Positions 2,229 to 29,263 of a stretch of 64,000 nucleotides of DNA are shown piece by piece. The notes beneath the pieces are model-generated. The model saw nothing but the letters and a program-made list of their open reading frames with translations. It searched no databases and had not been told where the DNA came from. The DNA is from Nostoc sp. DedSLP01. GTDB lineage: Bacteria > Cyanobacteriota > Cyanobacteriia > Cyanobacteriales > Nostocaceae. A program made the position numbers and the translations under genes. Every line of letters begins with the position of its first letter. Position 1 is the first letter of the stretch. The stretch spans positions 153,055 to 217,054 of the forward strand of contig JAVRCJ020000011.1 of assembly GCA_034530875.2 (NCBI GenBank). The letters are read 5' to 3'.

Positions 2229-3536
2229 TTAAACGAGGACTTGTTGCCATTCCAAGCGATCTAGAGTACGCGATCGCTCTAGGGCACGTTCAAAACTATC
2301 GAGTTTGGCATCAATAGTCAAGGGTTCGCCAATATAGCCTTGTACTGCTTCTTGGGTTTTCAAACCATTACCAGTGATGTAAACCACGGTAGTTTCATCT
2401 GGATCTATCTTGCCAGCTTCTACCAATTTTTTCAGCACAGCTACGGTTGTACCGCCTGCTGTTTCTGTGAAGATGCCTTCGGTTTCTGCTAGCAGCTTGA
2501 TGCCTTCGATAATTTCTCCATCGTTGACTGATTCAATGTTACCACCAGTCTTCTGAGCTATATCCACAGCATAAATGCCGTCTGCTGGGTTACCGATCGC
2601 AATTGATTTGGCAATTGTATTTGGTTTTACTGGTTTAATAAAGTCGCGCCCTTCTTTAAATGCTTGGGCGATGGGCGAACAACCTTCAGCTTGAGCGCCG
2701 CTGAAACGAACCTTCTTACCTGCTACCAAACCAACTTCGACAAATTCTTGGAAGCCCTTATAAATTTTGCTAAATAGAGAGCCAGAAGCTAAAGGAGCAA
2801 CAATATGGTCGGGTAATTCCCAGCCTAATTGTTCTGCAACTTCAAAGCCCAGCGTTTTAGAACCTTCAGAGTAGTAGGGACGCAAATTAATATTGACAAA
2901 TCCCCAACCGTATGTATTTGCAACTTCCGAACACAAACGATTGACTTGATCGTAGTTGCCCTTTACAGCCATCAGGGTGGGACTGTAAATCAAACTGCCG
3001 AGAATTTTACCAGCTTCCAAATCAGCGGGGATGAATACACAGCAATCTAAACCGGCGTGAGCTGCGATCGCCGCTGTAGAATTTGCCAAGTTACCAGTAC
3101 TGGCGCAGGAAACTGTGGAAAAACCCAACTCTCTTGCCCTGGAGAGGGCGACTGATACCACCCGATCCTTAAAGCTGAGGGTGGGCATATTCACAGCATC
3201 ATTTTTAATATAAAGCTTGTTTAGACCCAGGCGGCGGGCAAGACGATGGGAACGAACCAAGGGGGTCATACCAGTTCCCACATCTATAACGTTGTCAGTT
3301 GCGACAGGTAAAAAGGGACGGTAGCGCCAAATTGAATTAGGGCCGGCTTTAATTGTTTCCCGAGTGACGGTTTGACGCAGAGCGCTGTAGTCATACATGA
3401 CTTCCAAAGGCCCAAAGCATAACTCACAAACATTGCTGGCTTTGGGTTCGTATTCCGCGCCACATTCCTTACACTTCAAGGCTTTAAAAAATGTAGCATT
3501 ACCGACTTGGGATTGGGTTGTGATTGCCTGAGTCAT
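2229..3536 (-). CDS. thrC: Threonine synthase-like PLP enzyme (fold type II) with N-terminal Zn ribbon
   Basis: PTLSFKDR PLP-lysine motif, CASTGNLA, ITGNGLKT, and N-terminal CKEC...CELC. Confidence 0.85.
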   Translation of the reverse strand: MTQAITTQSQVGNATFFKALKCKECGAEYEPKASNVCELCFGPLEVMYDYSALRQTVTRETIKAGPNSIWRYRPFLPVATDNVIDVGTGMTPLVRSHRLARRLGLNKLYIKNDAVNMPTLSFKDRVVSVALSRARELGFSTVSCASTGNLANSTAAIAAHAGLDCCVFIPADLEAGKILGSLIYSPTLMAVKGNYDQVNRLCSEVANTYGWGFVNINLRPYYSEGSKTLGFEVAEQLGWELPDHIVAPLASGSLFSKIYKGFQEFVEVGLVAGKKVRFSGAQAEGCSPIAQAFKEGRDFIKPVKPNTIAKSIAIGNPADGIYAVDIAQKTGGNIESVNDGEIIEGIKLLAETEGIFTETAGGTTVAVLKKLVEAGKIDPDETTVVYITGNGLKTQEAVQGYIGEPLTIDAKLDSFERALERSRTLDRLEWQQVLV

Positions 3537-3605
3537 AAACTAGCTTTCCCTGTCTGTCCATCAACTGTCGCCTGATAGTAACACGAGTAAAAATACCAGT
3601 CAAAC

Positions 3606-3630
3606 ATACCCGACAAATTTTGTCGGGTAT
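3606..3630. promoter_or_regulatory. 25-bp palindromic operator, Rrf2/IscR-type
   Basis: ATACCCGACAAA-T-TTTGTCGGGTAT perfect inverted repeat 70 bp upstream of thrC-moaD. Confidence 0.65.
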
Positions 3631-4454
3631 TTTGGGTAGTCACAGTAATAATTTTTGTAACATTCGGTTACTAATAAATTTTTGCATTTAGTATTTACAC
3701 TTAGTAATTTTTGGTTATAAAAAAATCGCAGCTTGAGTTATTCCGTCTTAATACTGTTGGTAGTTAGAATTAAATTGCATTTTGGGTACGATCGATTTGC
3801 ATATATCTAAAAGATCGCCAGTTTTTAGCGATCTAAATCGCTTTTTGAATTTATTCCACGACTCGCTCGAGTAAAGTGAATATATAACAGTAAAGAATCA
3901 AAAGTATTTCCAGATATAGATTTTAGTATTTTTGCTCTGGGATTGAAGATTCAAGTTGCTATTGATATTCCAACAATGAATTTGAATTTCAATTTTTATA
4001 CACTCATTCACTGCTAGAGAAGTTACTTATTTATACGGTGGACTTTTCTTGCAGCAAAAGTTACATTTCTACTTGCATAAACAATTCAGCAGTACGCAAC
4101 AGTAAGTTTCCCATAGTTGTGGTTACCAGCCTTGATTATCAACGGCGATCGCAAATTTAGATCGGCGAATTATTTGCAGGTATTGCATGAATATATATTC
4201 GTGAGGAGTGTCAATAACTGATAGCAGATTTCAAGAAGAGAGAAAATATACAAATGAGGTTTCAAAGCTTGGCTTTAAACGTGCTTTACTACTGAATCTG
4301 ATTCGCAGAATTCAGTAATTTTGGTTTAACTCCTCAAATCTGCATTCTCAAAAAATTAACGTTTTAGGCAAATATCATCGGTAATTCTTAAAAAATTGCC
4401 GAACTTTATCCTCTTTAAAATTCAGGACACAAGTTCAGCAAACAAACAACACCT

Positions 4455-6989
4455 ATGGTAAAACAAAATAAATTTGTCAACAGGCAGCATCACCGCTATC
4501 AATCCTTAATAGCAACAGCATTATTAACTGGTAGCTTTTTCCAATTTGTTGCACCTGTATTAGCTGACGGAACTACTGCGGGTACGTCTATCAGTAATAC
4601 AGCCACAGCAACCTACGAAGATCCCAACAGTCCAGGGACGACAATCAACGCCACTTCCAACACTGTGGTTGTCACCGTTGCAGAAGTTGCTGGTATCACC
4701 GTCAGTGCATCTGGTGTCACAGATACCACTGCTAGTCCTAGCAATACAACAGTCCAAGCTGGCGATTTACTTATCTACACCTACACCTTGACCAACGTAG
4801 GTAACGACCCAACCAAATTCCACATTCCTAACCAAGCTACAACAACCGGGCCAGGTACAGTTTCTGGTACATTACCAAATGGTGGTACAGCTAATAGCTT
4901 GCAATATAGTATCGACGGCGGTCAAAATTGGATAAACGTTCCCCAAGGCGGCATAGATACACCATCAGTTCCAGTTGGTGGCACTGTATTGGTGCGCGTA
5001 CCAATTACTGTACAACCTGGTGCCCAAACCAATGATGTCATTACTGTTACCCTTGGTAATACTCCTGGTGACGCTCAAAACCAACTGCGGAGTCCTGATG
5101 GTGGCGACGTATTTACTGTAGATAATCCTGATGGTAGTCCTGGTGAGGTACCTGGCGCACCAGTTAACGGTACTCGGGAAGCTAGCGCCACCCAGCAAAT
5201 TAAGGTTGGTTTAACGGTAAAGACCTACACGTTAGCCACCGTTCTCAAGATTCGCAGTGGTTATAACAATGCTGGCACGCCTGCAATTACAGACGATAAG
5301 CTGACTTACGATTTGAGTTTGCGAGTTGAGTCCAACGATCCCACAGGACAGGGAATCACACCAGCAGCTTTGACTGGCACCAATGTTCCTGGTCTTGCTG
5401 GTACTCATATTTTGGTTTCTGATGCCATTCCCGCAGGTACAGATTTGGCAGTAGCACCAACTCCGCCTCCTGGTTGGCAAACTGTTTATACCACTGACCC
5501 AGTTACAACTAATGCTAATGCAGCTACTTGGACTACAACACCACCATCAGTCTTGGCTTCAGTAACTCGCGTTGGTTTTATCAATAATCCAGCAACAATT
5601 ACTTCCATCGCTCCTGGTACGACGGTGACTGGCTTTTCGATTCAAGTCGCCGTTGAATTAAGTGCCACTTCACCTTTAACTATTGCTAATATTGCCCAAT
5701 TATTTGGTCAAACACCAAGCAGCAATCTACCAGTATACGACGAATCGGGCGACCAAAATCCTAGCAACTACAACGGGCCTCCAGGTAGTATGATACCTCC
5801 CGCTGGTACAGATAGCAACAGCGATGGTGTTCCCGATACTCTACCAACCGGCAGCGTTGATGATGGCTATATTAATACTCCAACAACTCCGGAAACTGGA
5901 ACTGACGCAGGCAATAACAATAGTGGTGATGGTTCGCAAGGAGGTGAGGCGAACGTCATCACACTGCAAACACCTGTAGCTTCAGCAATACTCAACGGCC
6001 CGCAAAATGCACCGGATGCAACTGGGCCGTCAGGTGGAACCAACGATGACTTCACGAATAAATCTTCTCTCGTTCCTCCTAATACTGCACCTGGTAGTAC
6101 GCTCGATCCTCAGTCAGTTGGCTTCACAAACACAGTTAAGAATACTGGTACTGAGTCAGGGGTTTTGAAGATAGAGCCAACGCTACCAGGAGTTGCAGGA
6201 GATTTACCGAATAATACGAAGATAACGATTACCTATAATAGCCAGTCTGCTGTTTATACTTACAATAATGGAGTATTTACAACACCTGGGGCACCAATTA
6301 CAATCCCTAACTTTGCTCCTAATGCAACTATCAACTATGGTGTAGAAGTTGATTTACCCGCAGGTACGCAGTTATCTACTGATATTAATAAAGGCTTCCC
6401 AGTACCCGTAACTGCTTCTATTGATAACTACACGACGGATAGTAACGGAGATGGAATCAAGGATACTGGGAACGATAATGCCTTTGATTCATCCAACATC
6501 ACCATCGATCGCGTCTACACTGGCTACCTGAAACTGTTGAAAATGTCACGAGTTCTACAAGGAACCGGGCCTGTAGTTCAAGGAAATGATGGCATCTTCA
6601 GTACTGACCCGAAAAAGCCTGCACCAGGAAACATTATTGAGTACCAAATTCAGTACAGCAATATTTCCGAGCCTCAATCTGGAACTGGTAACGTGATTTT
6701 GAATGCTAGCAAAGTTGTGATTATTGAAGATGGTACGCAAGGCTCCAACAACTGGGCAAAAGACAATGATGCCAGCGGTCAAATTGATACTAGCAACATT
6801 GTTGGTTCCGCCAAAGATTCTGGCAGTGCAACCATTCAATTCTTCAGCGGAAATCCAGCTACTAGCTCTGGTATCGACCAAACTGGAACTACGGTAAATA
6901 CTGATGTCACCAAGTATGTTGATACTGTAACTGGTATCATCGCGCCGGGTGTTCAAAGAACATTTACCTTCCAACGTAAGGTCAACTAA
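4455..6989 (+). CDS. Secreted T/G/P/N-rich multi-Ig (DUF11-like) surface protein, candidate major fibre subunit
   Basis: Sec signal ending APVLA|DG. N-terminal GTSISNTATATY, repeated GD/GNxxxYxxxxxN strands, DxNxDG acidic loops. Confidence 0.75.
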   Translation: MVKQNKFVNRQHHRYQSLIATALLTGSFFQFVAPVLADGTTAGTSISNTATATYEDPNSPGTTINATSNTVVVTVAEVAGITVSASGVTDTTASPSNTTVQAGDLLIYTYTLTNVGNDPTKFHIPNQATTTGPGTVSGTLPNGGTANSLQYSIDGGQNWINVPQGGIDTPSVPVGGTVLVRVPITVQPGAQTNDVITVTLGNTPGDAQNQLRSPDGGDVFTVDNPDGSPGEVPGAPVNGTREASATQQIKVGLTVKTYTLATVLKIRSGYNNAGTPAITDDKLTYDLSLRVESNDPTGQGITPAALTGTNVPGLAGTHILVSDAIPAGTDLAVAPTPPPGWQTVYTTDPVTTNANAATWTTTPPSVLASVTRVGFINNPATITSIAPGTTVTGFSIQVAVELSATSPLTIANIAQLFGQTPSSNLPVYDESGDQNPSNYNGPPGSMIPPAGTDSNSDGVPDTLPTGSVDDGYINTPTTPETGTDAGNNNSGDGSQGGEANVITLQTPVASAILNGPQNAPDATGPSGGTNDDFTNKSSLVPPNTAPGSTLDPQSVGFTNTVKNTGTESGVLKIEPTLPGVAGDLPNNTKITITYNSQSAVYTYNNGVFTTPGAPITIPNFAPNATINYGVEVDLPAGTQLSTDINKGFPVPVTASIDNYTTDSNGDGIKDTGNDNAFDSSNITIDRVYTGYLKLLKMSRVLQGTGPVVQGNDGIFSTDPKKPAPGNIIEYQIQYSNISEPQSGTGNVILNASKVVIIEDGTQGSNNWAKDNDASGQIDTSNIVGSAKDSGSATIQFFSGNPATSSGIDQTGTTVNTDVTKYVDTVTGIIAPGVQRTFTFQRKVN

Positions 6990-7159
6990 TTTGTTGGGAG
7001 TGAGGGAGACAAGAGGACAAGGTAAATAACTCTTAAGTGAGTACTCCCAATGCCTAAAACCAGTTGACTTCACTCCTACAAAGCTCAAGCCAAGTGATTA
7101 TTTATTAGCAAAAGCAGGGAAAAATAAGTCAATAATCAAAATTCTGGAAGTTATTTATT

Positions 7160-7723
7160 ATGAAGGGTGCTTATCTTAGAGGTTTCGGTGCGTTTGCACT
7201 AATAGCTACAGTTACATTTTTGGCTGAATTTCCCAGATTTACAAATATCTCGCATTCAGGAATTGCCTACGCTCAAAATACTAAAACTCAAGGGCAAATT
7301 CAATTGCGCTTAGAAGCCGAAAAGCTAGTCATAGCTCAAGATCGGCAGGGCAAACAAAGCCAGAAATGGGAACTTTTAAAAGGTCAAGCTGTAGTCCGAC
7401 CGGGAGATGTATTGAGGTATACTTTGAGTGGCGAAAATCAAAGCGATCGCCCAGTCAAAAATTTGATTCTCAATCAACCCATTCCCCGGGGGATGGTCTA
7501 CGTACTGAAATCTGCAAATATAACTAATAATGGAAAAATTACTTATAGCATTGATGGTGGGCGTAACTTCGTCGAAAACCCCACCGTTAAAGTTACTCTT
7601 TCTAACGGCAAAGTGGAAACTAAACCAGCGCCAGCCATTGCTTATACCCACATCCGCATACAGATTCCGTCAGTTGCAGCAAAGACGGCAGTCAAAGCGA
7701 CTTATCAAACGCAAGTGCGTTGA
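7160..7723 (+). CDS. Secreted single-domain DUF11-like (conserved repeat domain) protein
   Basis: Signal peptide (IAYA|Q). Motifs VRPGDVLRYTLSGEN, QPIPRGMVYV and YSIDGG. Confidence 0.8.
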   Translation: MKGAYLRGFGAFALIATVTFLAEFPRFTNISHSGIAYAQNTKTQGQIQLRLEAEKLVIAQDRQGKQSQKWELLKGQAVVRPGDVLRYTLSGENQSDRPVKNLILNQPIPRGMVYVLKSANITNNGKITYSIDGGRNFVENPTVKVTLSNGKVETKPAPAIAYTHIRIQIPSVAAKTAVKATYQTQVR

Positions 7724-7730
7724 TTGAAAG

Positions 7731-7866
7731 AAGAATTCAGGATTCAGAATTCAGAAGCAACAGCACTGGTAACAGTTATTCAGAGTTCATAACCTCGTTC
7801 CTGCTGCGTTATTTAACAGTTGTACATAATTCATTCTGAATTCTGAATTCTGACTCCTGAATTCTG
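7731..7866. repeat. Inverted heptamer arrays (ATTCAGA)n ... (TTCTGAA)n able to form a long hairpin
   Basis: gaattcaggattcagaattcagaa at ~7733-7756 is complementary to ttctgaattctgaattctgactcctgaattc at ~7834-7864. Confidence 0.8.
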
Positions 7867-7896
7867 TTTTTATAATTTTTTTATTAACAACAAGCT

Positions 7897-9459
7897 TTGC
7901 ATCCAGAGGTGATGTGTTCGGTGAGCCGTCCTCAAAAACAAAAGCGAATTAATTCTAGTAGTATCTGGCATCAAAAATTAACAGCAATTCTTTTGCTAGG
8001 TAGTTTTTTACATAGTACTTTATCTCTATCTGTAAGAGCGCAACAAAATAACAATCTAGTTGCATCTGTGCCAATTACAAATCAAGCTAATTACACTTAT
8101 ACAGACCCAGCCAGTAATTATCAATATCAGGGAAATTCTAGTCAGCTTGACGTTACCCCCGATCCATTAGTTGACCCATTAGGGCGGATTTTAGGTTGTG
8201 CTGGAACGCTGTTACCAGACTATACAGGATTTTCAGTAGGGGTATACGAACCTAATCCTAACGACCCCACGGGTACAGAATTAGGCAGTTTAGTTGCTTT
8301 AACTAGAACAGAGTTACCTGATATTCCTAATAACAATGTGCCTGGTGGAAAATCGCCAAATATTGAAAATAGTAATCCATATTTCATTACAAATAACCCT
8401 GCGGGCGTTTATAACTTTTTACTAGATCCAAACAAAGGGCAAACCGATCCAGGTAGAATCTACATTTTTGTAGTTAATCCACCGCCGAATTCTATCTATA
8501 CACAACGGCGAGTCAAGATTGAAATCCTTAATAGCGTTGGTTCGCAAGGTAACGATGTCGTGCGGTATCTTGCTACTTCTTTAGATGGTCAACCAATAAG
8601 TCTTACAGGTGAGACTAGGGTAGAACAAACAGTTGTTTTAGTTCCCAATGCAGAAGTAGTGGGGCTGGATTTATTAGCCTTTGAATTCACGACAAATTTG
8701 TGTCAAGCCAATCAATTGCAGATTATCAAAACAGGCGATCGCGCGACTGCTGAACCTGGAGATACGGTTATCTACCGCCTATCGGTAAAAAATCTCTCTG
8801 ATGCTGGTTTGAACAATGTAGTTATTACTGACAACCTACCTTTAGGATTCCAGTTCTTGCCGAAATCTGTGCGGGGAGAGATGGATGGCGCAGCGGTTGC
8901 GATCGTATCAGAACGGAATGGCAACACGGTGATATTCCGAACAAGTATGGCGGTTCCCGTAGGGAAAGTCTTGAATATTGCCTACGCTGCTCAATTAACG
9001 GGCGATGCTTTGCGTGGTACTGGCCGCAACAGTGCGATCGCTACTGCCCAACGAAGCGATAACGGTTTTAGCACTAAGGATGGCCCGGCAACTCACCAAC
9101 TGAAAATTCGCCCTGGAATCGTTTCTGATTGTGGCACGATTATCGGCCGGGTGTTTGTCGATAAAAACTTTGATGGCGAACAACAGCGCGGCGAGCCTGG
9201 AATACCCAATGCAGTGGTTTTTCTAGAAGATGGTAACCGCATCACTACAGATCCCAATGGTTTGTTCTCCTTAGCTAACGTTTTACCTGGGTATCACACA
9301 GGCGTACTCGACCTCAGCAGTGTAGCTGGTTATGCGTTAGCTCCCAATAAAAAATTCCGCGAACGCAATAGCCAATCTCGCCTAGTGCATTTAGAACCGG
9401 GTGGCTTAGTACGCATGAACTTTGGTGTCACCCCATTTCAGGAGCCAGTCAAGAAATGA
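7897..9459 (+). CDS. Secreted DUF11 + SdrD-B/CnaB-like domain protein (start codon uncertain)
   Basis: Signal (SVRA|Q). Complete DUF11 (LQIIKT..EPGDTVIYRLSVKN..VITDNLP..GRNSA). C-terminal IIGRVFVDKNFDGEQ..GEPGIP..TDPNGLFS. Confidence 0.85.
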   Translation: MHPEVMCSVSRPQKQKRINSSSIWHQKLTAILLLGSFLHSTLSLSVRAQQNNNLVASVPITNQANYTYTDPASNYQYQGNSSQLDVTPDPLVDPLGRILGCAGTLLPDYTGFSVGVYEPNPNDPTGTELGSLVALTRTELPDIPNNNVPGGKSPNIENSNPYFITNNPAGVYNFLLDPNKGQTDPGRIYIFVVNPPPNSIYTQRRVKIEILNSVGSQGNDVVRYLATSLDGQPISLTGETRVEQTVVLVPNAEVVGLDLLAFEFTTNLCQANQLQIIKTGDRATAEPGDTVIYRLSVKNLSDAGLNNVVITDNLPLGFQFLPKSVRGEMDGAAVAIVSERNGNTVIFRTSMAVPVGKVLNIAYAAQLTGDALRGTGRNSAIATAQRSDNGFSTKDGPATHQLKIRPGIVSDCGTIIGRVFVDKNFDGEQQRGEPGIPNAVVFLEDGNRITTDPNGLFSLANVLPGYHTGVLDLSSVAGYALAPNKKFRERNSQSRLVHLEPGGLVRMNFGVTPFQEPVKK

Positions 9460-12400
9460 AACCTAGATTGCACTGTGCGACTATTTTCAACTTGAGGTCG
9501 ATGGGGCTAATGCCGATAGCTCTCAGCCTCGTTTTGTATCCGGCCATAGTTAAAGCAGAAGTCAGCCATGAAAAATTGCTTTTACAGGCAGAGAAGGGTG
9601 TCGAAGATCGAGCTGTTGAAAATAAAGTGGTTGAAAAAACTATGGGTGTGAATTCTGGGGTTGGTGATGCAGGAGATCGAAAGTTCGTGCAAATAAGCAA
9701 AGGCGCAAAGATTAAGAGAAGAATTCAGCAACGGGTAAATTCTTATCGTTTGTTGGGAAGTTCTAGACAAGAGGTTAAACCTGTTGAATTGCGGCCATTT
9801 TCTTTAGCATCAGCTAGCGTTAGTTCAATTTCAGATGTCCAGGCAATACAACCATTTCAACCAGCAAGTTCTGTGGAATTGCCTAAAGGGTTACGGAAAA
9901 TTGCAGGAATTGAGGATAAGAAAGACCAATCTCCAAAGGAAATACAACCATTTCAACCAGCAAGTTCTGTAGGTTTGCCCAAAGGGTTACGCAAAATTGC
10001 TAATGGGGACGTGGTGACAACGGGACAAGGGGAGGCTAAGGCAGAGGGACAAGGAGACAAGGAGACAACAGGACAAGAGGAGGCTAAGGCAGAGGGACAA
10101 GGAGACAAGGGGACAACAGGACAAGGGGAGGCTAAGGCAGAGGGACAAGGAGACAAGGAGACAACAGGACAAGGGGAGGCTAAAGCACAAGGACAAGGTT
10201 TGAATGAGAATATGCCTGTGTCTTCACCTCCAGGGATTTCTACAGGAATCAAAATTCTGACTCCGACGGCTGACAGTGTTGTAGATGTACAAGCTACTAC
10301 GGTGATTGTGCAGTTTCCTGCTGGTACTCAGGTGGAATTGCGAGTAAATGGGGTTTTGGTAGATGCTTCTTTGGTGGGGCGGACGGAAAGCGATGCGAGT
10401 ACTAACTTAGTAACGCAGACATGGTATGGTGTTTCGTTACAAGAAGGCCAAAATACTATCTCAGCAAATGTTGTTGGCGGCAAGGAACCGCCTGTAACAG
10501 TGCAGGTGGCAGTTCGAGGAGCGCCGCAGCAACTAACTTTAGAAACTGTTGAGTCTCGTATCCCGGCTGATGGACGTTCTACGGCTACAATCCAGGGTCA
10601 ACTGCTCGATGCCAGTGGTAATCGCTCTAATTATGATGCTGTTGTGACTTTGATACCTACTGCTGGGGACTTCGTGGAGAAAGATTTTCAACCCGATGAA
10701 CCTGGATTTCAAGTGCAGGCGAAAGGAGGACAATTTAGAGCAACATTGCGATCGCAATTGAAGGCGGAAACTGTCACAATCCGCGCCATCACTAATAATT
10801 TAGAAGCCTATACCCAACTGCAATTTGAAACGGCCTTACGTCCGAGTTTGCTGACTGGGGTCATAGATTTACGTTTGGGTGCAAGAGGTACAAATTATTA
10901 TGGCAGTTTCCGCGATTTCATTCCTCCTGACAAAGACAATAGAACGCAATTAGATTTCCATTCAGCGATATTTGCCACCGGTACGATTGGAGAGTGGTTG
11001 TTTACGGGAGCATATAACAGTTCTCGGAATCTGAATGAAGATTGTAACTGCGATAATCGCTTGTTTAGAACTTATCAATTTAGCGAGCAAAACTATCCTG
11101 TTTACGGTGATAGCTCGAAAGTTGATGCGGTCGCTCCTTCCATTGACAGCGTATTTCTGCGTTTTGAGCGTTCAACCGGTATAGCTGGATCTGCTCCTGA
11201 TTTTGCTATGTGGGGTGACTATAACACAGAAGAATTTGCGCGGCGATCGCAGCAATTTACTTCTATAACTCGTCAGCTCCACGGTTTTAAAGCTAATTAC
11301 AATTTAGGAAATTTACAAATTACAGGTTTTTACGGCAATAACTTAGAAGGATTCCAACGAGACACGATTGCTCCCGATGGTACTAGTGGTTATTATTTCC
11401 TTTCTCGCAGGCTCCTACAACCAGGTAGTGAAAATGTTTTTATCGAGTTAGAAGAACTCAATCGTCCTGGGACTGTATTGGAACGCAAACAGCTAAACCG
11501 AGGCCCAGACTACGAAATTGACTACGATCGCGGTACTTTATTATTCCGCGAACCGATTCTTCGTACCGATATTGATGAAAACGGACAAGTCTTGGTACGT
11601 CGGATTGTTGTTAGCTATCAATACGAAAGTGAAGACTCTGATAGCAATATCTTTGCCGGTCGTTTGCAATATAATCTTTCCCGCGAACTGAATCGGGAAA
11701 GTTGGATTGGAGCAACTTACGTCCAAGAAAATCAAGGTGCGCGTGATTTTCAACTCTACGGCGCGGACGCACTGATAGCTTTGGGTGACAAGGGTAAGCT
11801 AATCGCAGAATACGCTCATTCGAGTAATGATTCTGATGTTCTAGGAAGGGTTAGGGGTGATGCGTATCGCTTGGAAGCTGAGGGACAAATTACTAATGGC
11901 ATTCAAGGACGTGCTTATTATCGGTTTGCCGATACAGGTTTTGCTAACAATGCCACGATCAGCTTTGTACCAGGGCAAACTCGTTATGGGGCGCAGGTTA
12001 TAGCTAAACTAAGTTCAACTACCACTGCCAGAGTCCAATACGATCACGAAGACAATTTTGGTATTGCTCCCCAACCGCTAGATACTTTTGAAGAATTATT
12101 TGCACCCCGTAATGATGCCATACCAGGAAGTAAGGTTGATAATTCTCTGACGACAATTAGTGCTGGGATTCAACAACGTTTAGGTAGTGCCATCTTCGAT
12201 CTAGATTGGATTCATAGGGATCGCCAAGACCGTATCTCACCCAACGCCTTGAGTGGTAATTCCGATCAATTGCGATCGCGTTTTACAGTTCCTATCGCTA
12301 AAAACTTGACTTTCCAAGCCCAAAACGAACTTAGTCTATCTTCCCAAAAAGATAGTGTTTATCCAGACCGTACTATCTTCGGGTTAAATTGGGCAGCAAT

Positions 12401-13562
12401 TCCTGGCATCAATATTAGTCTGGCGCAACAGTTTTACAGTAGCGGTCAATTTTCTGGTAACTCCATCACCAGCTTGAGTGTCAACGGCGAACACAAACTC
12501 GGAAGGGATACCACAATAACAGGTCGTTACTCAATTTTGGGTGGTGCCAATGAACTGACTACACAAGGGGCAATTGGTCTAAATAACCGTTGGACTATTG
12601 CTCGTGGATTGCGGTTGAATTTAGCTTACGAACACGTATTTGGTAACTTCTTCGGACGCACAGCAGCAGGTCAACAATATCCCCAACCTTACGCCTTCGG
12701 TCAAGCTGCATCATCAATTGGCTTTGATGGTGGCGATAGTTACAGTGTTGGTTTGGAATACAGCGATAACCCGGAATTTCAAGCCAGCGCCCGCTACGAA
12801 CATCGCTCCTCTTCTGGTGGTACTAATACAGTAATTACCGCAGGTGCAGTGGGTAAAATTTCTCCATCGCTCACGGCTCTAGTACGTTATCAACAAGCAA
12901 ACTCTTCCAATCAAAGACTTTCAGGATTGGCAGATACCGCTAATTTGAAAGTGGGTTTAGCTTACCGCGACCCCCACAGTGATAAATTTAATGCTTTGTT
13001 GCGTTATGAATATCGCCAAAATCCAGCGATTATTCCTGAGACTATTTTGTTAGGTAGCGGTACGGGTTCCCAAGACCATACTTTTGCTTTAGAAGCTATT
13101 TACGCCCCTAACTGGCAATGGGAATTCTACGGTAAGTATGCTTTGCGTAACAGTACTTCTTATTTGGCTAACGATTTAGTAGGTACGAGTACGGTGAATT
13201 TAGGACAATTACGGGCTACTTATCGTTTGGGATATAGCTGGGATTTAGTTGGTGAGGCTCGTTGGATTGGTCAATCTAGTTACAGTGAGACAGGCTTTGT
13301 TCTAGAAACAGGTTACTACCTGACTCCTAATTTGCGGCTTTCTGCTGGATATGTCTTCGGTAAAGTTGATGACAGGGATTTTTCCGGGACGCGATCGGCA
13401 GGAGGCCCATACTTGGGACTAACTGTCAAGCTAGATGACTTGTTTGATGGTTTTGGACAGCAAAAACCGGTGCCACGTCAGCAACAGAAGCCAAATACAA
13501 CAGAGGCGCAGATGAAAACAGAGACGCATCAAGCTGCGTCTCTAGATGGGGCAAATTTGTAG
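9456..13562 (+). CDS. Large outer-membrane beta-barrel protein with periplasmic Ig-like domains
   Basis: 4-bp overlap with the upstream gene, signal peptide, Big-1-like IPADGRST segment, and a long amphipathic aromatic/Gly beta-strand C-terminal region ending GPYLGLTVKL. Confidence 0.75.
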   Translation: MKPRLHCATIFNLRSMGLMPIALSLVLYPAIVKAEVSHEKLLLQAEKGVEDRAVENKVVEKTMGVNSGVGDAGDRKFVQISKGAKIKRRIQQRVNSYRLLGSSRQEVKPVELRPFSLASASVSSISDVQAIQPFQPASSVELPKGLRKIAGIEDKKDQSPKEIQPFQPASSVGLPKGLRKIANGDVVTTGQGEAKAEGQGDKETTGQEEAKAEGQGDKGTTGQGEAKAEGQGDKETTGQGEAKAQGQGLNENMPVSSPPGISTGIKILTPTADSVVDVQATTVIVQFPAGTQVELRVNGVLVDASLVGRTESDASTNLVTQTWYGVSLQEGQNTISANVVGGKEPPVTVQVAVRGAPQQLTLETVESRIPADGRSTATIQGQLLDASGNRSNYDAVVTLIPTAGDFVEKDFQPDEPGFQVQAKGGQFRATLRSQLKAETVTIRAITNNLEAYTQLQFETALRPSLLTGVIDLRLGARGTNYYGSFRDFIPPDKDNRTQLDFHSAIFATGTIGEWLFTGAYNSSRNLNEDCNCDNRLFRTYQFSEQNYPVYGDSSKVDAVAPSIDSVFLRFERSTGIAGSAPDFAMWGDYNTEEFARRSQQFTSITRQLHGFKANYNLGNLQITGFYGNNLEGFQRDTIAPDGTSGYYFLSRRLLQPGSENVFIELEELNRPGTVLERKQLNRGPDYEIDYDRGTLLFREPILRTDIDENGQVLVRRIVVSYQYESEDSDSNIFAGRLQYNLSRELNRESWIGATYVQENQGARDFQLYGADALIALGDKGKLIAEYAHSSNDSDVLGRVRGDAYRLEAEGQITNGIQGRAYYRFADTGFANNATISFVPGQTRYGAQVIAKLSSTTTARVQYDHEDNFGIAPQPLDTFEELFAPRNDAIPGSKVDNSLTTISAGIQQRLGSAIFDLDWIHRDRQDRISPNALSGNSDQLRSRFTVPIAKNLTFQAQNELSLSSQKDSVYPDRTIFGLNWAAIPGINISLAQQFYSSGQFSGNSITSLSVNGEHKLGRDTTITGRYSILGGANELTTQGAIGLNNRWTIARGLRLNLAYEHVFGNFFGRTAAGQQYPQPYAFGQAASSIGFDGGDSYSVGLEYSDNPEFQASARYEHRSSSGGTNTVITAGAVGKISPSLTALVRYQQANSSNQRLSGLADTANLKVGLAYRDPHSDKFNALLRYEYRQNPAIIPETILLGSGTGSQDHTFALEAIYAPNWQWEFYGKYALRNSTSYLANDLVGTSTVNLGQLRATYRLGYSWDLVGEARWIGQSSYSETGFVLETGYYLTPNLRLSAGYVFGKVDDRDFSGTRSAGGPYLGLTVKLDDLFDGFGQQKPVPRQQQKPNTTEAQMKTETHQAASLDGANL
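9846..10200 (+). repeat. In-frame coding repeats: 20-aa duplication plus ~4 x 48-nt units
   Basis: IQPFQPASSVxLPKGLRKIA at 9846 and 9942; TTGQGEAKAEGQGDKE x4 (last copy partial) from ~10017. Confidence 0.9.
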
Positions 13563-13570
13563 TTGTAATT

Positions 13571-14158
13571 ATGACTAAACCCAAATTTCAGGGCAAATAC
13601 CGAGTAGGATCTACTAGGTTGCCAACTCGTAATTACGCCGCTAATGGGTGGTATTTCATCACAATTTGCACAAGCGATCGCACTCATTTCTTAGGAAGTG
13701 TAATTACAGGAAATGTACAATTATCAAAAATTGGAGAAATAGCCCAACAATTCTGGGCAGAAATTCCAAATCATTTTGCCTACACCTATACAGATGCTTA
13801 TGTCGTCATGCCCAATCACGTACATGGGATTATTGCGATCGACCGTCCCCAAAATGTAGAGACGTTGCATTGCAACGTCTCTACACAACGTGATACCCCA
13901 TGCAACATTGCACAAGAACAATTCATGTCTGACATATCTCCTAAAGCGGGTTCATTGGGAGCGATAGTGCGTTCGTACAAATCTGCTGTGACCCGTTGGT
14001 GTGGGAAAAACGGTTTTGAAAACTTTGCTTGGCAAGAGCGATTTTACGAACACATCATTCGTGCTGATGGTTCTTTAGATCGAATTCGAGAATATATCAT
14101 TAATAATCCTACTAAATGGGAGAATGACAAAAACAATCCTATAAATTTATGGATGTGA
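13571..14158 (+). mobile_element. REP-associated tyrosine transposase (RAYT/TnpA-REP, HUH Y1 family)
   Basis: YFITICT, VVMPNHVHGII (HUH), WQERFYEHIIR and catalytic-region EYIINNP motifs; GTAG-type palindromes adjacent. Confidence 0.88.
13855..13885. repeat. REP palindrome inside the RAYT gene
   Basis: TGTAGAGACGTTGCA-T-TGCAACGTCTCTACA, perfect 31-bp palindrome. Confidence 0.9.
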
Positions 14159-25146: not shown

Positions 25147-28100
25147 CTATTGCCACGTTCCCAATTCATCAATGGTATTACGAATTAGCGAAGTTATTTG
25201 AGCGCGACGGGTTTCAAAATTAGCGGCAATATAAATTAGCAAAATTCCAACTAACAAGCCGACAACCCATTTCAAAAAAGAGTACTGCAAGCTGAAAATT
25301 ACTGATTGATAGATAGTAGTAATTAAAAAAGTAGCTGTACCAATGTACAGAAAAGCCCGCACTCGCAAAGCTAATCCAGCAAAAATGGCGATGAGGCTAA
25401 AAATACCGGGTATCCACGGTGTATCTTGATGAAATAAAATTGCCCAGCCGCAAATTAAACCGCTACCCAGCAAACGCAGGGTATGGCGAACTGTTTTAGA
25501 TTCTGGTAATCTCAGCTGGGTATCTACTTGAGCAATGTAAAGTAGCGATAATCCAAATGATGTTACATACCACAAAGCATCACGCAGATATAAGCCATAA
25601 AGCCAACGGTACAACGCCCAATTAATCAGCACCACACTGATATAGGTAAAACGGATGTTGCCACCCACTTTTGCTAAAAAGATGTAATATGCAGCGGTGA
25701 GTATCAAAGCGATCGGGTAAATTTGTAGTGCAGTTTGCCATATAACGATTAGCGGTAAAACGTACGCAGCTTGTTGCCAAGGTCTTTTAGACCAACCCCA
25801 AGTTTCCCAAGGTAAGATATACAGAAAATAGGCGGCTACGCAGGCGATCGCACCATCCCAAGGAAGCAATTGTGTAGTAAATAAACTAATTATTGGGATT
25901 TCCCGCGAATAAATACTGATGGCAATCGCCTCTAACAAACCCAGGTAAACCCAAAGTTCATCTATTGATATACCCCAGGCTGTTGCCAAAGATGCTTCGG
26001 GCGATCGCTTTCCTTGAAAAATTGCATACCGCACCAAAAATATCCCAGTTCCCAATCCCAGCAAACGGTTAAATCCAATGGGAACGGCTATAGCAGCGAT
26101 TAATAAGCAGCTACTCCAAGCCCAGTGAATATCAGCTATGTTTTTGAGTTCTTGGCGAGTTAAGCGTAAGTAGCCCATTAACCAAGGTAACAGGATGCGA
26201 TAGGCATACATGATACTCGCACCAAGGGCAGACATGGCAATCAATCCATCGCCTAATGTTCCGCCTGAAGCTTGGGACATTTGATAGAACAAAAGTTCGT
26301 AAGCAGAAATTGATATGCCAATGATTCCTAAATACAGCAGCGGTTTAAAGTCTTCCCGGCGTCGCCCTACACCAATAATTATTAAAGCTACACCCAAGGA
26401 ACACAAACCCGTCCACTCGGTAAAGGTTTCTACACGCAAGAATACGCTGAATACACCATAAATTAATGGCAAAATGTGAAGGCTACTAGGCAGCCTTTGT
26501 AATTGATGTCGTCGTCGCCACCACTCTCCTACAAGCTGAGTAATTAAACCCAAGGCGATATTTGCGATCGCAATCCTAATAATGGATCTTTCCCCAAACC
26601 CTAAAACTTGGGCTGTCAACAATTCCAAACACCAACCAATGCTATAAAATGCCCAATTTGTTGGTTGCTGCCAACTGCGATAGATAATACCTCCTAAAAT
26701 AATACCAGTGGCAATTAAGTACAAAAATCCAGAATTAGCTGCCCCTCGATAAATCAAGATTGAGTGCAGCGTTAAAGCAGAGAATTCATAACCACACAAA
26801 GCGATCGCCCATTTATCGCTGGCGGCTGCATAGATAGCTGCTAATTCGTTACTACGTTGTCTGAGTGCTGTGCGTATTAACCATAAACTGAAAGTGGCGA
26901 TCGCTCCGACAACAAACCAACCAGCCACCGCTAAAGGAGGTAAACCAGGCACGCCCGTCCACAGCACTACGCCGATAAAACTTAAAACAAATCCTTCCGC
27001 AATCACCGCAGCTACTTGGTTTCGCAAATAGCGCGTATTTACGAACATGATTACCGCGCCCACAGCCAAGCCAATTAATCTAATTCCTGGTAGCTGTAAA
27101 GTAAGTAACTGGGCAATTCCCACAGTTAAAATACTTAAGTAACGGGTAATAGTACGATTTTCTAGATTTGCGCCATTGGCAACACCCGTAAGAGCTATGG
27201 GCGTAACCAGCCAAATAACTCCCCAATAAGCCCTGCTATCGGCGACGCCATACCAAGATGATTCTGCATTCATCCACAACAGCAAAAAACTAACGGCGGC
27301 TAATCCTAAACCGATGTCCCATGCACTACGTCGCCATAATCCAGCCCCCATACTAAATATCCATTCTGCAACCATCACAGCCAATAAAATACTTGCCCAA
27401 ACTTCTCTACTGAGTGTTGGCAAGAACCAATGAACCAGCGAACAAAACGTCAGCACGCCGATGATATGAGTCAGGTATACCAGAGGAGGAGATGAGGAGG
27501 GGCGGCGTTTGCTGACAACAGCAAGGGCGATTGTAGAAAATAGCAGATTTAGCGATCGCAACGCCGGATTGACTACAGCGATCGTTGTCAGAAAAGCTCC
27601 TAATAATAAAGCCAGTAGTTCCCCAAATTCAGCCAATTCTCGTTTTTGGGCGCGATAGAAATAATCTGTAAGCGCCACCATGAAAATTACGTAAGGAAAT
27701 AAAACTACACCCAGCAATGCCCAAGGTTGATTTTGAGAATTTGTGAGTCCGGTAGCAGTAGCGATGGCCAATTCTTGTAAATTATGGGGTACTAACCGCC
27801 AAGCAAGCCAAATTGTCTGTAAACCAATAACGAAAATCGCCGCCAAGTCAATTTTTAAACTGTAGCGCTGCAAGCGATTTCCCACAAACCACAAACCCAA
27901 ACCACTCACAGCTATAGCTTGCCAGGGATAATTAATTACTGAAACCAACCAACCCAGTAAGAGTAAAATCGCACCGAATCTTTCCCAAACTAAGGGAGAT
28001 GACGGAGATATTACAGTTACTTCCTCATCTCCCCCTGCTCCCTGCCCCCTGCCCCCTGCCCCCCTGCCTTCCTCCTGTGCTAGCCAAGTCACCAACCAGC

Positions 28101-29067
28101 CGCAAATCCCAATCGCTAAACCTAGCTGTGTAACATTTACCCCAGCAATAAAAATCGCCCGTCCTAACAAGACTAGCAAAGCATAAATTATGACTGTAAC
28201 GCGTAAATTAATACTGAAATTATGGCGATCGCTGGTGTTATCTGCGTAACGGCGATTGGCAACAGCAATTATAGTTGTGGCGATGGTTGCCAGATAAACA
28301 GCAATTAAAGGAAATCCTCTAAATTGCCAACCCCAATGTAGATAACTCAACCCCAGAATATTGACTATAAGTAATTTATCGCTATTTATACGGGGAAAAA
28401 TAGTCCGATTTTTAAAGATTAAAGCAGTAATAGCAGTGAGGGTAGGCAAGGCGATCGCAACTACAATCCAATCCAGCGGATTTTGCCATAAGCGAAAGCT
28501 ATCCATCGCCCAAAAGTTCACTGGCACTAACAAAAGAGTGGCAATCAATAATGTCTGAGCTGTCAATCTCAAGTTATTTTGCCTAGTCGCCCAAAAGCTT
28601 AACCCCCAAAAACTCAAAGTATAAGCAAATAAAACTCCATACTGCCCGGAAGCAGGAAATTTTGCCCACTGACTAGCAGCCAGTACCCCAGAGGATACCA
28701 CTACTAAAAATACCCCTAAAAAAAGCAGCCAACGGACGCTCAATTCTGCTCCTAATGACTGCAACATTGTGCTGAAAAAGTTGGGTTGAGCTGGTGTTTC
28801 TGTCGCTTGTTTGCTACTAGTAGCTTGTAAAGCTCCTACAGGCAACTGTTGCACGGCATCGGAAGTTGCAAATTTTACCTGAGCTTCACTTTTAGCCTGG
28901 GGTTGTAACCTCACCGTACAAACCAGGAATTCTCGGGATATTTGCCTAACTTGGGAATCGGATATCAAACCTAAGCGCAGCCATATCTCAAGTCCCTCCA
29001 ATAAATGGGGATGAGAAGATGGAAGCCTGATTTCAACTTTTAGCGGGCGCTCAAAAGGCGATGACAT
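25147..29067 (-). CDS. Large polytopic membrane protein (DUF2157-like); alternative TTG start at 29076
   Basis: LEIWLRLGLISDSQV N-terminal motif, ELSVRWLLFLG, and very many hydrophobic helices. Confidence 0.75.
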   Translation of the reverse strand: MSSPFERPLKVEIRLPSSHPHLLEGLEIWLRLGLISDSQVRQISREFLVCTVRLQPQAKSEAQVKFATSDAVQQLPVGALQATSSKQATETPAQPNFFSTMLQSLGAELSVRWLLFLGVFLVVVSSGVLAASQWAKFPASGQYGVLFAYTLSFWGLSFWATRQNNLRLTAQTLLIATLLLVPVNFWAMDSFRLWQNPLDWIVVAIALPTLTAITALIFKNRTIFPRINSDKLLIVNILGLSYLHWGWQFRGFPLIAVYLATIATTIIAVANRRYADNTSDRHNFSINLRVTVIIYALLVLLGRAIFIAGVNVTQLGLAIGICGWLVTWLAQEEGRGAGGRGQGAGGDEEVTVISPSSPLVWERFGAILLLLGWLVSVINYPWQAIAVSGLGLWFVGNRLQRYSLKIDLAAIFVIGLQTIWLAWRLVPHNLQELAIATATGLTNSQNQPWALLGVVLFPYVIFMVALTDYFYRAQKRELAEFGELLALLLGAFLTTIAVVNPALRSLNLLFSTIALAVVSKRRPSSSPPLVYLTHIIGVLTFCSLVHWFLPTLSREVWASILLAVMVAEWIFSMGAGLWRRSAWDIGLGLAAVSFLLLWMNAESSWYGVADSRAYWGVIWLVTPIALTGVANGANLENRTITRYLSILTVGIAQLLTLQLPGIRLIGLAVGAVIMFVNTRYLRNQVAAVIAEGFVLSFIGVVLWTGVPGLPPLAVAGWFVVGAIATFSLWLIRTALRQRSNELAAIYAAASDKWAIALCGYEFSALTLHSILIYRGAANSGFLYLIATGIILGGIIYRSWQQPTNWAFYSIGWCLELLTAQVLGFGERSIIRIAIANIALGLITQLVGEWWRRRHQLQRLPSSLHILPLIYGVFSVFLRVETFTEWTGLCSLGVALIIIGVGRRREDFKPLLYLGIIGISISAYELLFYQMSQASGGTLGDGLIAMSALGASIMYAYRILLPWLMGYLRLTRQELKNIADIHWAWSSCLLIAAIAVPIGFNRLLGLGTGIFLVRYAIFQGKRSPEASLATAWGISIDELWVYLGLLEAIAISIYSREIPIISLFTTQLLPWDGAIACVAAYFLYILPWETWGWSKRPWQQAAYVLPLIVIWQTALQIYPIALILTAAYYIFLAKVGGNIRFTYISVVLINWALYRWLYGLYLRDALWYVTSFGLSLLYIAQVDTQLRLPESKTVRHTLRLLGSGLICGWAILFHQDTPWIPGIFSLIAIFAGLALRVRAFLYIGTATFLITTIYQSVIFSLQYSFLKWVVGLLVGILLIYIAANFETRRAQITSLIRNTIDELGTWQ

Positions 29068-29263
29068 AAGCCGCAATAATAGATGTATATACTTAAATCA
29101 TGGATTTAAAGTATATTTTGGCTTTAATTATGGAATTTATCAGGCTAATTGATATTAATTTTTTGATCTAAGTACAAGGCACGAGGTAAAATCCTCAATA
29201 GTAAAAGGTTTCCCTTTCGTTACAAAAACGGCCTCCTGCCCCCTGCCCCCTGCCTTCGTTATC

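Follow-up and report, generated by a model that had tools for sequence, protein, structure and literature searches.

A 64,000-nucleotide (nt) stretch of DNA from Nostoc sp. DedSLP01 (contig JAVRCJ020000011.1, positions 153,055 to 217,054; hereafter the window) carries four consecutive forward-strand genes that encode proteins of 844, 187, 520 and 1368 amino acids (aa) and are followed by an IS200-like gene. We predict, with a probability of about 0.65, that they belong to a self-locking fibre in which the 844-aa protein polymerizes as the shaft, an adhesin forms the tip, the 520-aa protein serves as the base and the 1368-aa protein as an outer-membrane barrel, the subunits being joined by autocatalytic Lys-Asn isopeptide bonds with no sortase involved. 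At the core of this prediction, the last domain of the 844-aa protein ends before its final strands, and a hairpin at the N terminus of the same protein fits the vacant place in structural models; domain and hairpin together appear to be a strongly conserved isopeptide-type domain split between the two chain ends, the bond itself being predicted. The host of the window is Nostoc-like, as the 844-aa protein has its best named matches in Nostoc (85-91% identity), where they are annotated as hypothetical or 'beta strand repeat-containing'.

A domain split between the ends of the predicted shaft protein

In the model of the whole 844-aa monomer (92-row alignment; predicted local distance difference test, pLDDT, 91.7), the mature N terminus consists of two strands, residues 45-55 and 63-74, connected by a linker of about 6 residues to the first of four immunoglobulin (Ig)-like domains, D1 to D4. 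The last of these, D4 (residues 690-844), folded alone with a pLDDT of 95.7. On the CLIPPER structure 9IFR, D4 covers residues 18 to 109 (Z 7.2, root-mean-square deviation, rmsd, 2.2, 91 aligned), whereas the internal domain D2 covers 18 to 139 of the same chain (Z 8.1, rmsd 2.7, 122 aligned). The same holds for RrgB (2X9Z), where D4 covers 187 to 307 (Z 6.9) and stays short of Asn318; for SpaD (4HSQ), where it covers 184 to 289 (Z 6.0), short of Asn299, and D2 covers 182 to 325; for BcpA (3KPT), where it covers 268 to 372 (Z 7.1), well short of the domain end, and D2 covers 268 to 410; and for the Jo-In domain of RrgA (5MKC), where it covers 183 to 683 (Z 5.6), short of Asn695. These Z values are middling (5.6-7.2), and the weight of the comparison rests on the early stop shared in five of five CnaA-type structures: a whole CnaA-type domain continues through its Asn strand, and the D4 chain stops earlier. 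In agreement with this, the chain ends exactly 3 residues past Arg841 in 88 of the 122 relatives that span both ends, the other 34 having tails of 4-26 residues (the family set comprised the query and 150 representatives clustered at 50%, with the 145 of 300-1000 aa aligned). The truncation of D4 is a family trait, and the fold alignments and these chain ends together bear out the proposal of a first-pass annotation of this DNA that the C-terminal domain halts before its Asn strand.

That annotation had also called the last domain DUF11-like. The CLIPPER and other CnaA-type matches support this at the level of the fold, but Pfam assigns no DUF11 there, and the internal domain that it recognizes is DUF7925. 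When D4 was aligned by hhalign with the complete DUF11 domain of the operon (77.8%, E 1.9e-5), Glu758 was set on the catalytic Asp of the latter. The reading of the mature N terminus as the last strands of a DUF11 domain needs a similar correction: donor strands are seen in the model, but two are donated and not one, and by hhalign the hairpin profile had no significant match (probability below 1%) to the last strands of complete domains. TTHA1873 was dropped as a model of the acceptor, being a complete domain that matches D1 (Z 9.0, rmsd 3.1, 128 aligned). Searching the solved structures by sequence with the shaft protein and its profile gave 0 hits, and Foldseek with the whole model returned generic multi-Ig hits, with no solved filament of the shaft family among those listed.

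The joint prediction of N-terminal segment and C-terminal domain suggested in the first-pass annotation was run with the hairpin (residues 38-82) and D4 (687-844), each with its own alignment. The two folded together with a score of 0.76, against 0.00 for the best control; the mark of this test was passed by 116 of 157 solved pairs and by 2 of 215 mismatched pairs. The runs agreed in at least 96% of the contacts with a partner pLDDT of at least 77, although pLDDT was dropped as evidence of docking because D4 alone already reaches its high value. In the complex model the first hairpin strand, which bears Asn48, runs antiparallel to the Glu758 strand, with the second one extending beside that of Lys696, so that the modelled position of the hairpin is the site of the strands missing from the CnaA fold, and Lys696, Glu758 and Asn48 are all within the modelled interface.

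These three residues are strongly conserved. Lys696 is present in 122 of the 122 relatives (the runner-up of the 20 Lys is kept in 97), position 758 is acidic in 121 (115 Glu, 6 Asp and 1 Gly, which makes Glu758 the second of 15 Glu in conservation), Asn48 is found in 121, and all three occur jointly in 120. For comparison, the internal triad of D2 (K265, D323, N412) is intact in 96 of the 111 relatives having that domain, which is missing in the other 11. The layout of Lys on the first strand, acid on the third and Asn on the penultimate one is found in K696, E758 and N48. Asp759, formerly proposed as the catalytic acid, had to be given up: it is Glu758 that aligns with the catalytic Asp, and Asp759 is Asp in 86 and Asn in 27 of the 122, which makes Glu758 the predicted acid. 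On the other hand, the statement that complete domains of the operon keep the Lys-Asp-Asn pattern proved right, both in D2, a Pfam DUF7925 domain (PF25546, 242.7 bits against a cut-off of 26.5), and in the 520-aa protein (K278, D312, N378).

Partner proteins and gene neighbourhoods

The 520-aa protein has a donor without an acceptor. Its N-terminal stretch matches the shaft hairpin (hhalign 94%, Asn62 on Asn48), as anticipated in the first-pass annotation, and Asn62 is kept in 73 of 73 copies of the gene. Among 29,170 frames of the genome, the best non-self hit of each hairpin profile was the hairpin of the other gene (15.3 against 7.9 bits for the next hit, and 10.9 against 9.1 bits, the second margin being thin). 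Besides this hairpin the protein contains the complete K278-D312-N378 domain and no open domain, and its comparison by sequence with solved structures gave chance-level hits only. Its stop codon overlaps the start of the barrel gene, with ATGA as the overlap at 69 of 75 loci. In Acinetobacter haemolyticus, a plasmid encodes the counterparts of the 520-aa protein and the barrel (30% and 25% identity) as one fused 2008-aa protein, which starts with an N-terminal hairpin and whose neighbours on the plasmid are genes for a small acceptor, an OmpA protein and an acceptor-ended adhesin, together with a fragmented shaft gene. Because of this overlap and this fusion, the 520-aa protein is most likely the base adaptor that would link the fibre to the barrel.

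Conversely, the 187-aa protein is an acceptor without a donor, and it stops at the same strand as D4, as had been noted before. It has the Lys (Lys55) and Gln106 at the acid position, as aligned to the Asp strand of 9IFR, a structure that its profile matched at E 0.32. Gln occupies this position in 73 of 73 close relatives and in 29 of a wider set of 31, where the remaining two have Pro and Asp, the Asp-bearing one being without the Lys; the Acinetobacter counterpart has Leu. Lys and acid are therefore never found together in the members of this family that were compared. Since the acid is absent, the protein would be expected to bind a hairpin without locking it, and its probable role is that of a cap or chaperone to which donor hairpins attach non-covalently. 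Of the earlier suggestion that the two other proteins cap or anchor the polymer, the anchoring part is thus retained for the 520-aa base, but a covalent cap is an improbable role for the 187-aa protein.

The 1368-aa protein resembles unnamed outer-membrane proteins, one relative matching Porin_4 weakly, and it had no usher match (PF00577) in Pfam at E up to 1. The usher gene of this genome is on another contig (C13:165108-166715), and no PapD-family chaperone was found when the four operon proteins were compared with Pfam and NCBIfam. All3289 of Anabaena PCC 7120, a protein of 1289 aa with a C-terminal outer-membrane anchor (PMC9705863; here and below, the literature is cited from the accessible parts of each paper), may be its equivalent. 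Barrel relatives occur on 24 plasmid records, mostly proteobacterial, three of which were looked at closely. On a Roseovarius plasmid (L033:1-14406), a gene for a very long DUF11 protein precedes a barrel relative, stop and start overlapping. In the window, in-frame tandem repeats with 48-nt units and a 64-nt pair occur at 9841-10196, in the part of the barrel gene that encodes a variable N-terminal linker.

The four genes are in order at 12 of the 13 loci fetched, and the three upstream genes are present at 71 of 72 close barrel loci with enough flank, which are close kin and not independent. At 12 distant four-gene loci, the next gene encodes a variable adhesin-like protein with the same open C-terminal domain in 8 cases and an OmpA-family protein in 3, and is cut off in 1. 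Among 80 close barrel loci, an acceptor-ended adhesin gene is found at 62 of the 73 that have 4 kb downstream. The Lys is present in 72 and the acid in all of 73 complete acceptor-ended genes, of which 65 have no hairpin and 8 have one, and their N-terminal parts vary (LTD, VWA, GEVED, DUF11). In the genome of the window the adhesin is a 980-aa acceptor-only protein with a lamin-tail domain and with Lys and Asp kept, encoded on contig C5 (264797-267736); it probably forms the fibre tip, its gene having been displaced from the operon. An adjacent adhesin is likewise absent from the five closest barrel loci (L034-L038), one of which has only 2.4 kb downstream. In total, this genome contains two donors and three acceptors.

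Some variations of these gene sets were also recorded. Two or three tandem acceptor-ended genes lie downstream of the barrel at loci L039, L046, L049, L052, L056 and L067, and 8 of these tandem genes also have a donor hairpin, which makes them candidates for minor linker subunits between tip and shaft. Genome G144 has two complete operon copies (L021 and L026), with shafts 39-68% identical to that of the window, one copy being followed by an OmpA-family gene and the other by an adhesin gene. At L027:5262-13391 (reverse strand) a D3-D4 piece of the shaft is found inside a 2709-aa protein, in a non-terminal position, and there are similar fusions among the representatives P0149, P0208, P0134 and P0126. 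Finally, the genome of the window encodes a 1834-aa protein (C53:9672-15173) with two DUF11 matches and one SdrD_B-like match and with neither hairpin nor open end.

Proposed assembly, alternatives and known fibres

In the proposed assembly, all parts would cross the inner membrane through Sec-type signals, and the hairpin of subunit n+1 would fill D4 of subunit n, completing its fold as in the complex model. Asn48 of subunit n+1 would there meet Lys696 and Glu758 of subunit n and, by the chemistry of CnaA domains, give an autocatalytic Lys-Asn isopeptide bond with loss of NH3. As suggested by the anatomy of the proteins and by the gene fusion, the acceptor-only adhesin would receive the first shaft hairpin at the tip, and the last shaft acceptor would receive the 520-aa hairpin, which would end growth and tie the fibre to the barrel. 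The 187-aa acceptor, which lacks the acid, might cap hairpins reversibly in the periplasm, mirroring the chaperone of chaperone-usher systems, which is of the donor type. Complementation between chains is very probable; this pairing is favoured because donor-only and acceptor-only proteins cannot complete themselves. The covalent lock is probable, and a split CnaA domain, Jo-In, is known to bond spontaneously between chains (PMC5333627). That the product is an exported, barrel-anchored adhesive fibre seems fairly likely. The self-crosslinking head-to-tail polymer of the first-pass annotation is supported by the modelled fit, the residues and the donor-only and acceptor-only partners, while polymer and bond remain predictions.

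Several points weigh against this assembly. The conservation of an Asn says little by itself, three more being found in 121-122 of the 122 relatives, and one relative is without Asn48 and another without the acid. The predicted catalytic residue is Glu, whereas the CnaA-type domains tabulated in PMC12617251 use Asp. The Lys696-Asn48 pair is absent from the 25 best-defined contacts of the complex, in which Lys696 touches Ser68, Asn69 and Val71; the complex consists of two halves of a known fold, and its passing of the test may reflect likeness to solved CnaA domains; and such a model is blind to pairing within or between chains. Of 151 cyanobacterial genomes sampled, only 13, this one included, were found to have the shaft; no experimental work on any member of the family was found in the literature; and folded 80-kDa subunits would have to pass through the outer membrane. 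Covariation was of little help either way: a mean-field direct coupling analysis of the hairpin against the domains (150 rows, about 135 effective) gave 30 pairs above z 3 for D4 and 44, 29 and 43 for D1 to D3, a mutual-information ladder scan of the same shallow 150 rows had no D4 ladder in its top 8, and the few top pairs that suit the expected register do so only in hindsight, the alignment being too shallow.

A fibre built head to tail by strand complementation alone, its subunits not covalently joined and Lys696 and Glu758 forming a buried salt bridge, would account for the Glu in place of the Asp of CnaA domains and for the Lys-Asn contact not displayed in the complex model. Moreover, the N35A variant of the TasA-family protein BsaA still forms oligomers that are stable to sodium dodecyl sulfate when unheated, so that non-covalent pairing can be strong (PMC11580942), and some DUF11 domains are without a bond (PMC12617251). 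We nevertheless consider this unlikely, since the split set is better kept than the predicted internal triad, Glu is exchanged for Asp in 6 of 122 relatives, and the adhesin acceptors all keep the acid that the 187-aa family specifically lacks.

The shaft hairpin might instead complete the D4 of its own chain, giving a cyclized monomer or a small ring and leaving only the 520-aa protein to pair with the 187-aa protein or the adhesin. Soft hinges between D1 and D2 and between D2 and D3 would permit a ring, and the hairpin has a pLDDT of 91-98 in the monomer model; AlphaFold, however, often self-complements donor-strand subunits. The short linker between hairpin and D1 argues against such closure, as do the relatives short of one or two inner domains (D1, D2 or D3; 11 of 122), which keep both the hairpin and D4 and because of which a chain suits the data better than a ring, and the additional genes with donor plus acceptor in tandem at some loci. 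Altogether, self-closure is improbable.

A short stalk of fixed length or a periplasmic scaffold on the barrel, made for example of the adhesin, one shaft and the base, would also contain the parts described above without forming a long pilus. It would suit an operon that has no usher-like or ATPase gene and the OmpA-family gene that replaces the adhesin after 3 of the 12 distant loci. Neither is there any sign here of a shaft made in excess, as no hairpin after the shaft gene was detected in the window (z -0.86); among relatives, values below z -2 with mononucleotide shuffles were obtained after 36 of 74 shaft genes and after 32 of 73 small genes. However, nothing built into a subunit that has both donor and acceptor would stop growth, and domains of the extracellular adhesin type are encoded by the variable tip genes, which makes this arrangement very improbable. 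Least probable, and overlapping the proposed assembly, is a bond to Asn69 of the second hairpin strand in a CnaB-like geometry, for although Asn69 is present in 118 of 122 relatives, contacts Lys696 together with Ser68, and CnaB-type domains use Glu (PMC12617251), the fold matches are of the CnaA type and the 520-aa donor keeps the equivalent of Asn48 in 13 of 13 cases, while in Nostocales its counterpart of Asn69 is mostly Ser, Thr or Pro.

The layout of the operon that would encode the self-locking fibre resembles the parts list of chaperone-usher pili. Those pili (FimA/FimH/FimI/FimC/FimD) have an acceptor-only tip, a donor-plus-acceptor shaft, a terminator, a periplasmic helper and an outer-membrane barrel. 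They also have no covalent link, one donor strand, a strand-donating PapD-type chaperone and an usher barrel, whereas here the helper is an acceptor. Their hallmark, an incomplete Ig fold that the next subunit fills with its N-terminal extension, is found here in the model only, and with two strands. Judged by family searches, the operon is not a member of this class, having neither an usher-family barrel nor a PapD-family chaperone at the locus. Covalently linked pili are a textbook feature of Gram-positive bacteria that needs a sortase. On sequence grounds the operon is not of that type: no sortase gene was found in this genome (99.78% complete; the same search was positive in 3 of 14 controls), and the shaft protein ends in a beta-strand, with no C-terminal sorting signal and hydrophobic tail. 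Type V pili are made from a lipoprotein precursor, released by a protease, and use a C-terminal donor strand; the shaft protein differs in having no Cys in its N-terminal region and an N-terminal donor.

The closest precedent is BsaA of Clostridium perfringens, in whose 'exchange and lock' mechanism an N-terminal Asn donor enters the sheet of the next subunit, the acceptor supplies Lys and Glu, no sortase is needed, and the N35A and K74A variants lose the heat-stable oligomers (PMC11580942). Residues and model would here fit such a pattern of Asn donor, acceptor Lys and Glu catalyst, the bond being a prediction. BsaA differs in its TasA fold, single strand, SipW signal peptidase and monoderm host, as against a CLIPPER/CnaA fold, a two-strand hairpin, a multi-domain 80-kDa subunit, a diderm host and barrel, tip, base and cap genes. 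There is no Pfam match to the TasA family, which is also not among the fold hits listed, although this does not exclude a TasA fold, and no SipW signal peptidase is encoded by the operon genes. The archaeal thread Saci_0406 likewise combines head-to-tail donor strand complementation with proposed inter-subunit isopeptide links, but these go from Asn57 to the N-terminal amine of subunit n+2, and there is no outer membrane (PMC9715654). In Jo-In, engineered by splitting RrgA D2, a two-chain CnaA-type domain reassembles (Lys191-Asn695 with Asp600), but the pair is artificial, is cut at another point and forms no polymer (PMC5333627). CLIPPER/DUF11 (PF01345) and DUF7925 domains (PDB 9IFR) share the fold class and the Lys-acid-Asn layout; Table 1 of PMC12617251 lists DUF7925 (PF25546) as a CnaA-like intramolecular isopeptide domain, and its example Q8YS00 (K264, D326, N415) is numbered close to D2. 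In the accessible part of that paper such domains are described as complete, intramolecular and located in single-chain adhesins, in contrast to the split between chain ends and genes seen here. The DUF11 grappling hooks of Litorilinea were set aside as a single long chain, and the Microcystis CT pilus, a signal-peptide screen of PCC 11901 and a FurC regulon table were checked and set aside as far as those sources were accessible.

As far as it was accessible, a 2026 review of bacterial surfaces treats isopeptides for sortase pili only, with no DUF11 or CLIPPER (PMC13721041), and no description of this system was found in a literature search outside which most subscription papers fell. The system is possibly a novel version of donor-strand, self-locking fibres, perhaps a separate diderm pilus pathway; tentatively, with the balance tipping slightly to the other side, such a pathway might extend from cyanobacteria to proteobacteria and combine a natural split tag/catcher polymer, a dead-acceptor chaperone, a non-usher barrel for export and anchoring, and interchangeable tips. 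If correct, it would represent a new route of pilus assembly, yielding a self-locking Gram-negative fibre served by a dedicated barrel and a chaperone of the acceptor type; it would give a function to the common 'DUF11 / beta strand repeat' operon class and provide protein engineers with a naturally split domain pair for ligation. For Nostoc and its relatives, it offers a testable candidate for surface attachment, colony or partner contact, and the predictions are sharp: three residues, one cross-link and one gene order.

The locus and the rest of the window

The features of the locus are collected in Table 1. The Y1_Tnp gene is single-copy and directly behind the barrel gene, and comparable genes stand between barrel and adhesin in loci L023, L075, L078 and L111.

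Table 1. Features of the four-gene locus and the adjoining gene, in positions of the window
Feature	Position	Strand	Remarks
Shaft (major) subunit, predicted, 844 aa	4455..6989	+	Sec-type signal, donor hairpin, Ig domains D1-D4
Predicted signal peptide, residues 1-37	4455..4565	+	Cleavage after VLA, read from sequence; Ala37 in 112/122 relatives
Donor hairpin, residues 38-76	4566..4682	+	Strands F and G of a CLIPPER-like domain
Asn48 codon	4596-4598		Hairpin
Asn69 codon	4659-4661		Hairpin
D1, complete Ig-like domain	4686..5210	+	No Lys at isopeptide position
D2, complete CnaA-like DUF7925 domain	5220..5969	+	Predicted intramolecular bond K265-D323-N412
D3, complete Ig-like domain	5979..6521	+	
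D4, predicted acceptor	6522..6989	+	CLIPPER-like domain without last two strands
Lys696 codon	6540-6542		D4
Glu758 codon	6726-6728		D4
187-aa acceptor-only protein	7160..7723	+	TIGR01451; Lys55 kept, Gln106 at acid position
520-aa donor-only protein	7897..9459	+	Hairpin with Asn62, complete CLIPPER K278-D312-N378, SdrD_B-like last domain
1368-aa outer-membrane barrel-like protein	9456..13562	+	Big_1/Invasin_D3-like domain; candidate anchor and export pore
Y1_Tnp (IS200-like) gene	13571..14158	+	Outside the fibre parts; occupies the adhesin-gene place of most relatives

Promoter and terminator counts at the locus were at chance level, and Rfam gave zero matches across positions 3400-8000. Between the 187-aa and 520-aa genes (7720-7880) there is a long inverted repeat of short tandem units (z -3.6), whose sequence is not conserved among relatives. 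Elsewhere in the window, a 1309-aa open reading frame at 25147-29076 (reverse strand) had zero Pfam matches at E 0.001, and a nonribosomal peptide synthetase cluster occupies positions 36045-60610 (reverse strand). It consists of three synthetases with one methyltransferase and a thioesterase, in a region that also holds HMGL-like, aconitase and isopropylmalate-dehydrogenase-like genes and an ABC transporter, and we take it to resemble the anabaenopeptin-type clusters with homo-amino-acid supply.

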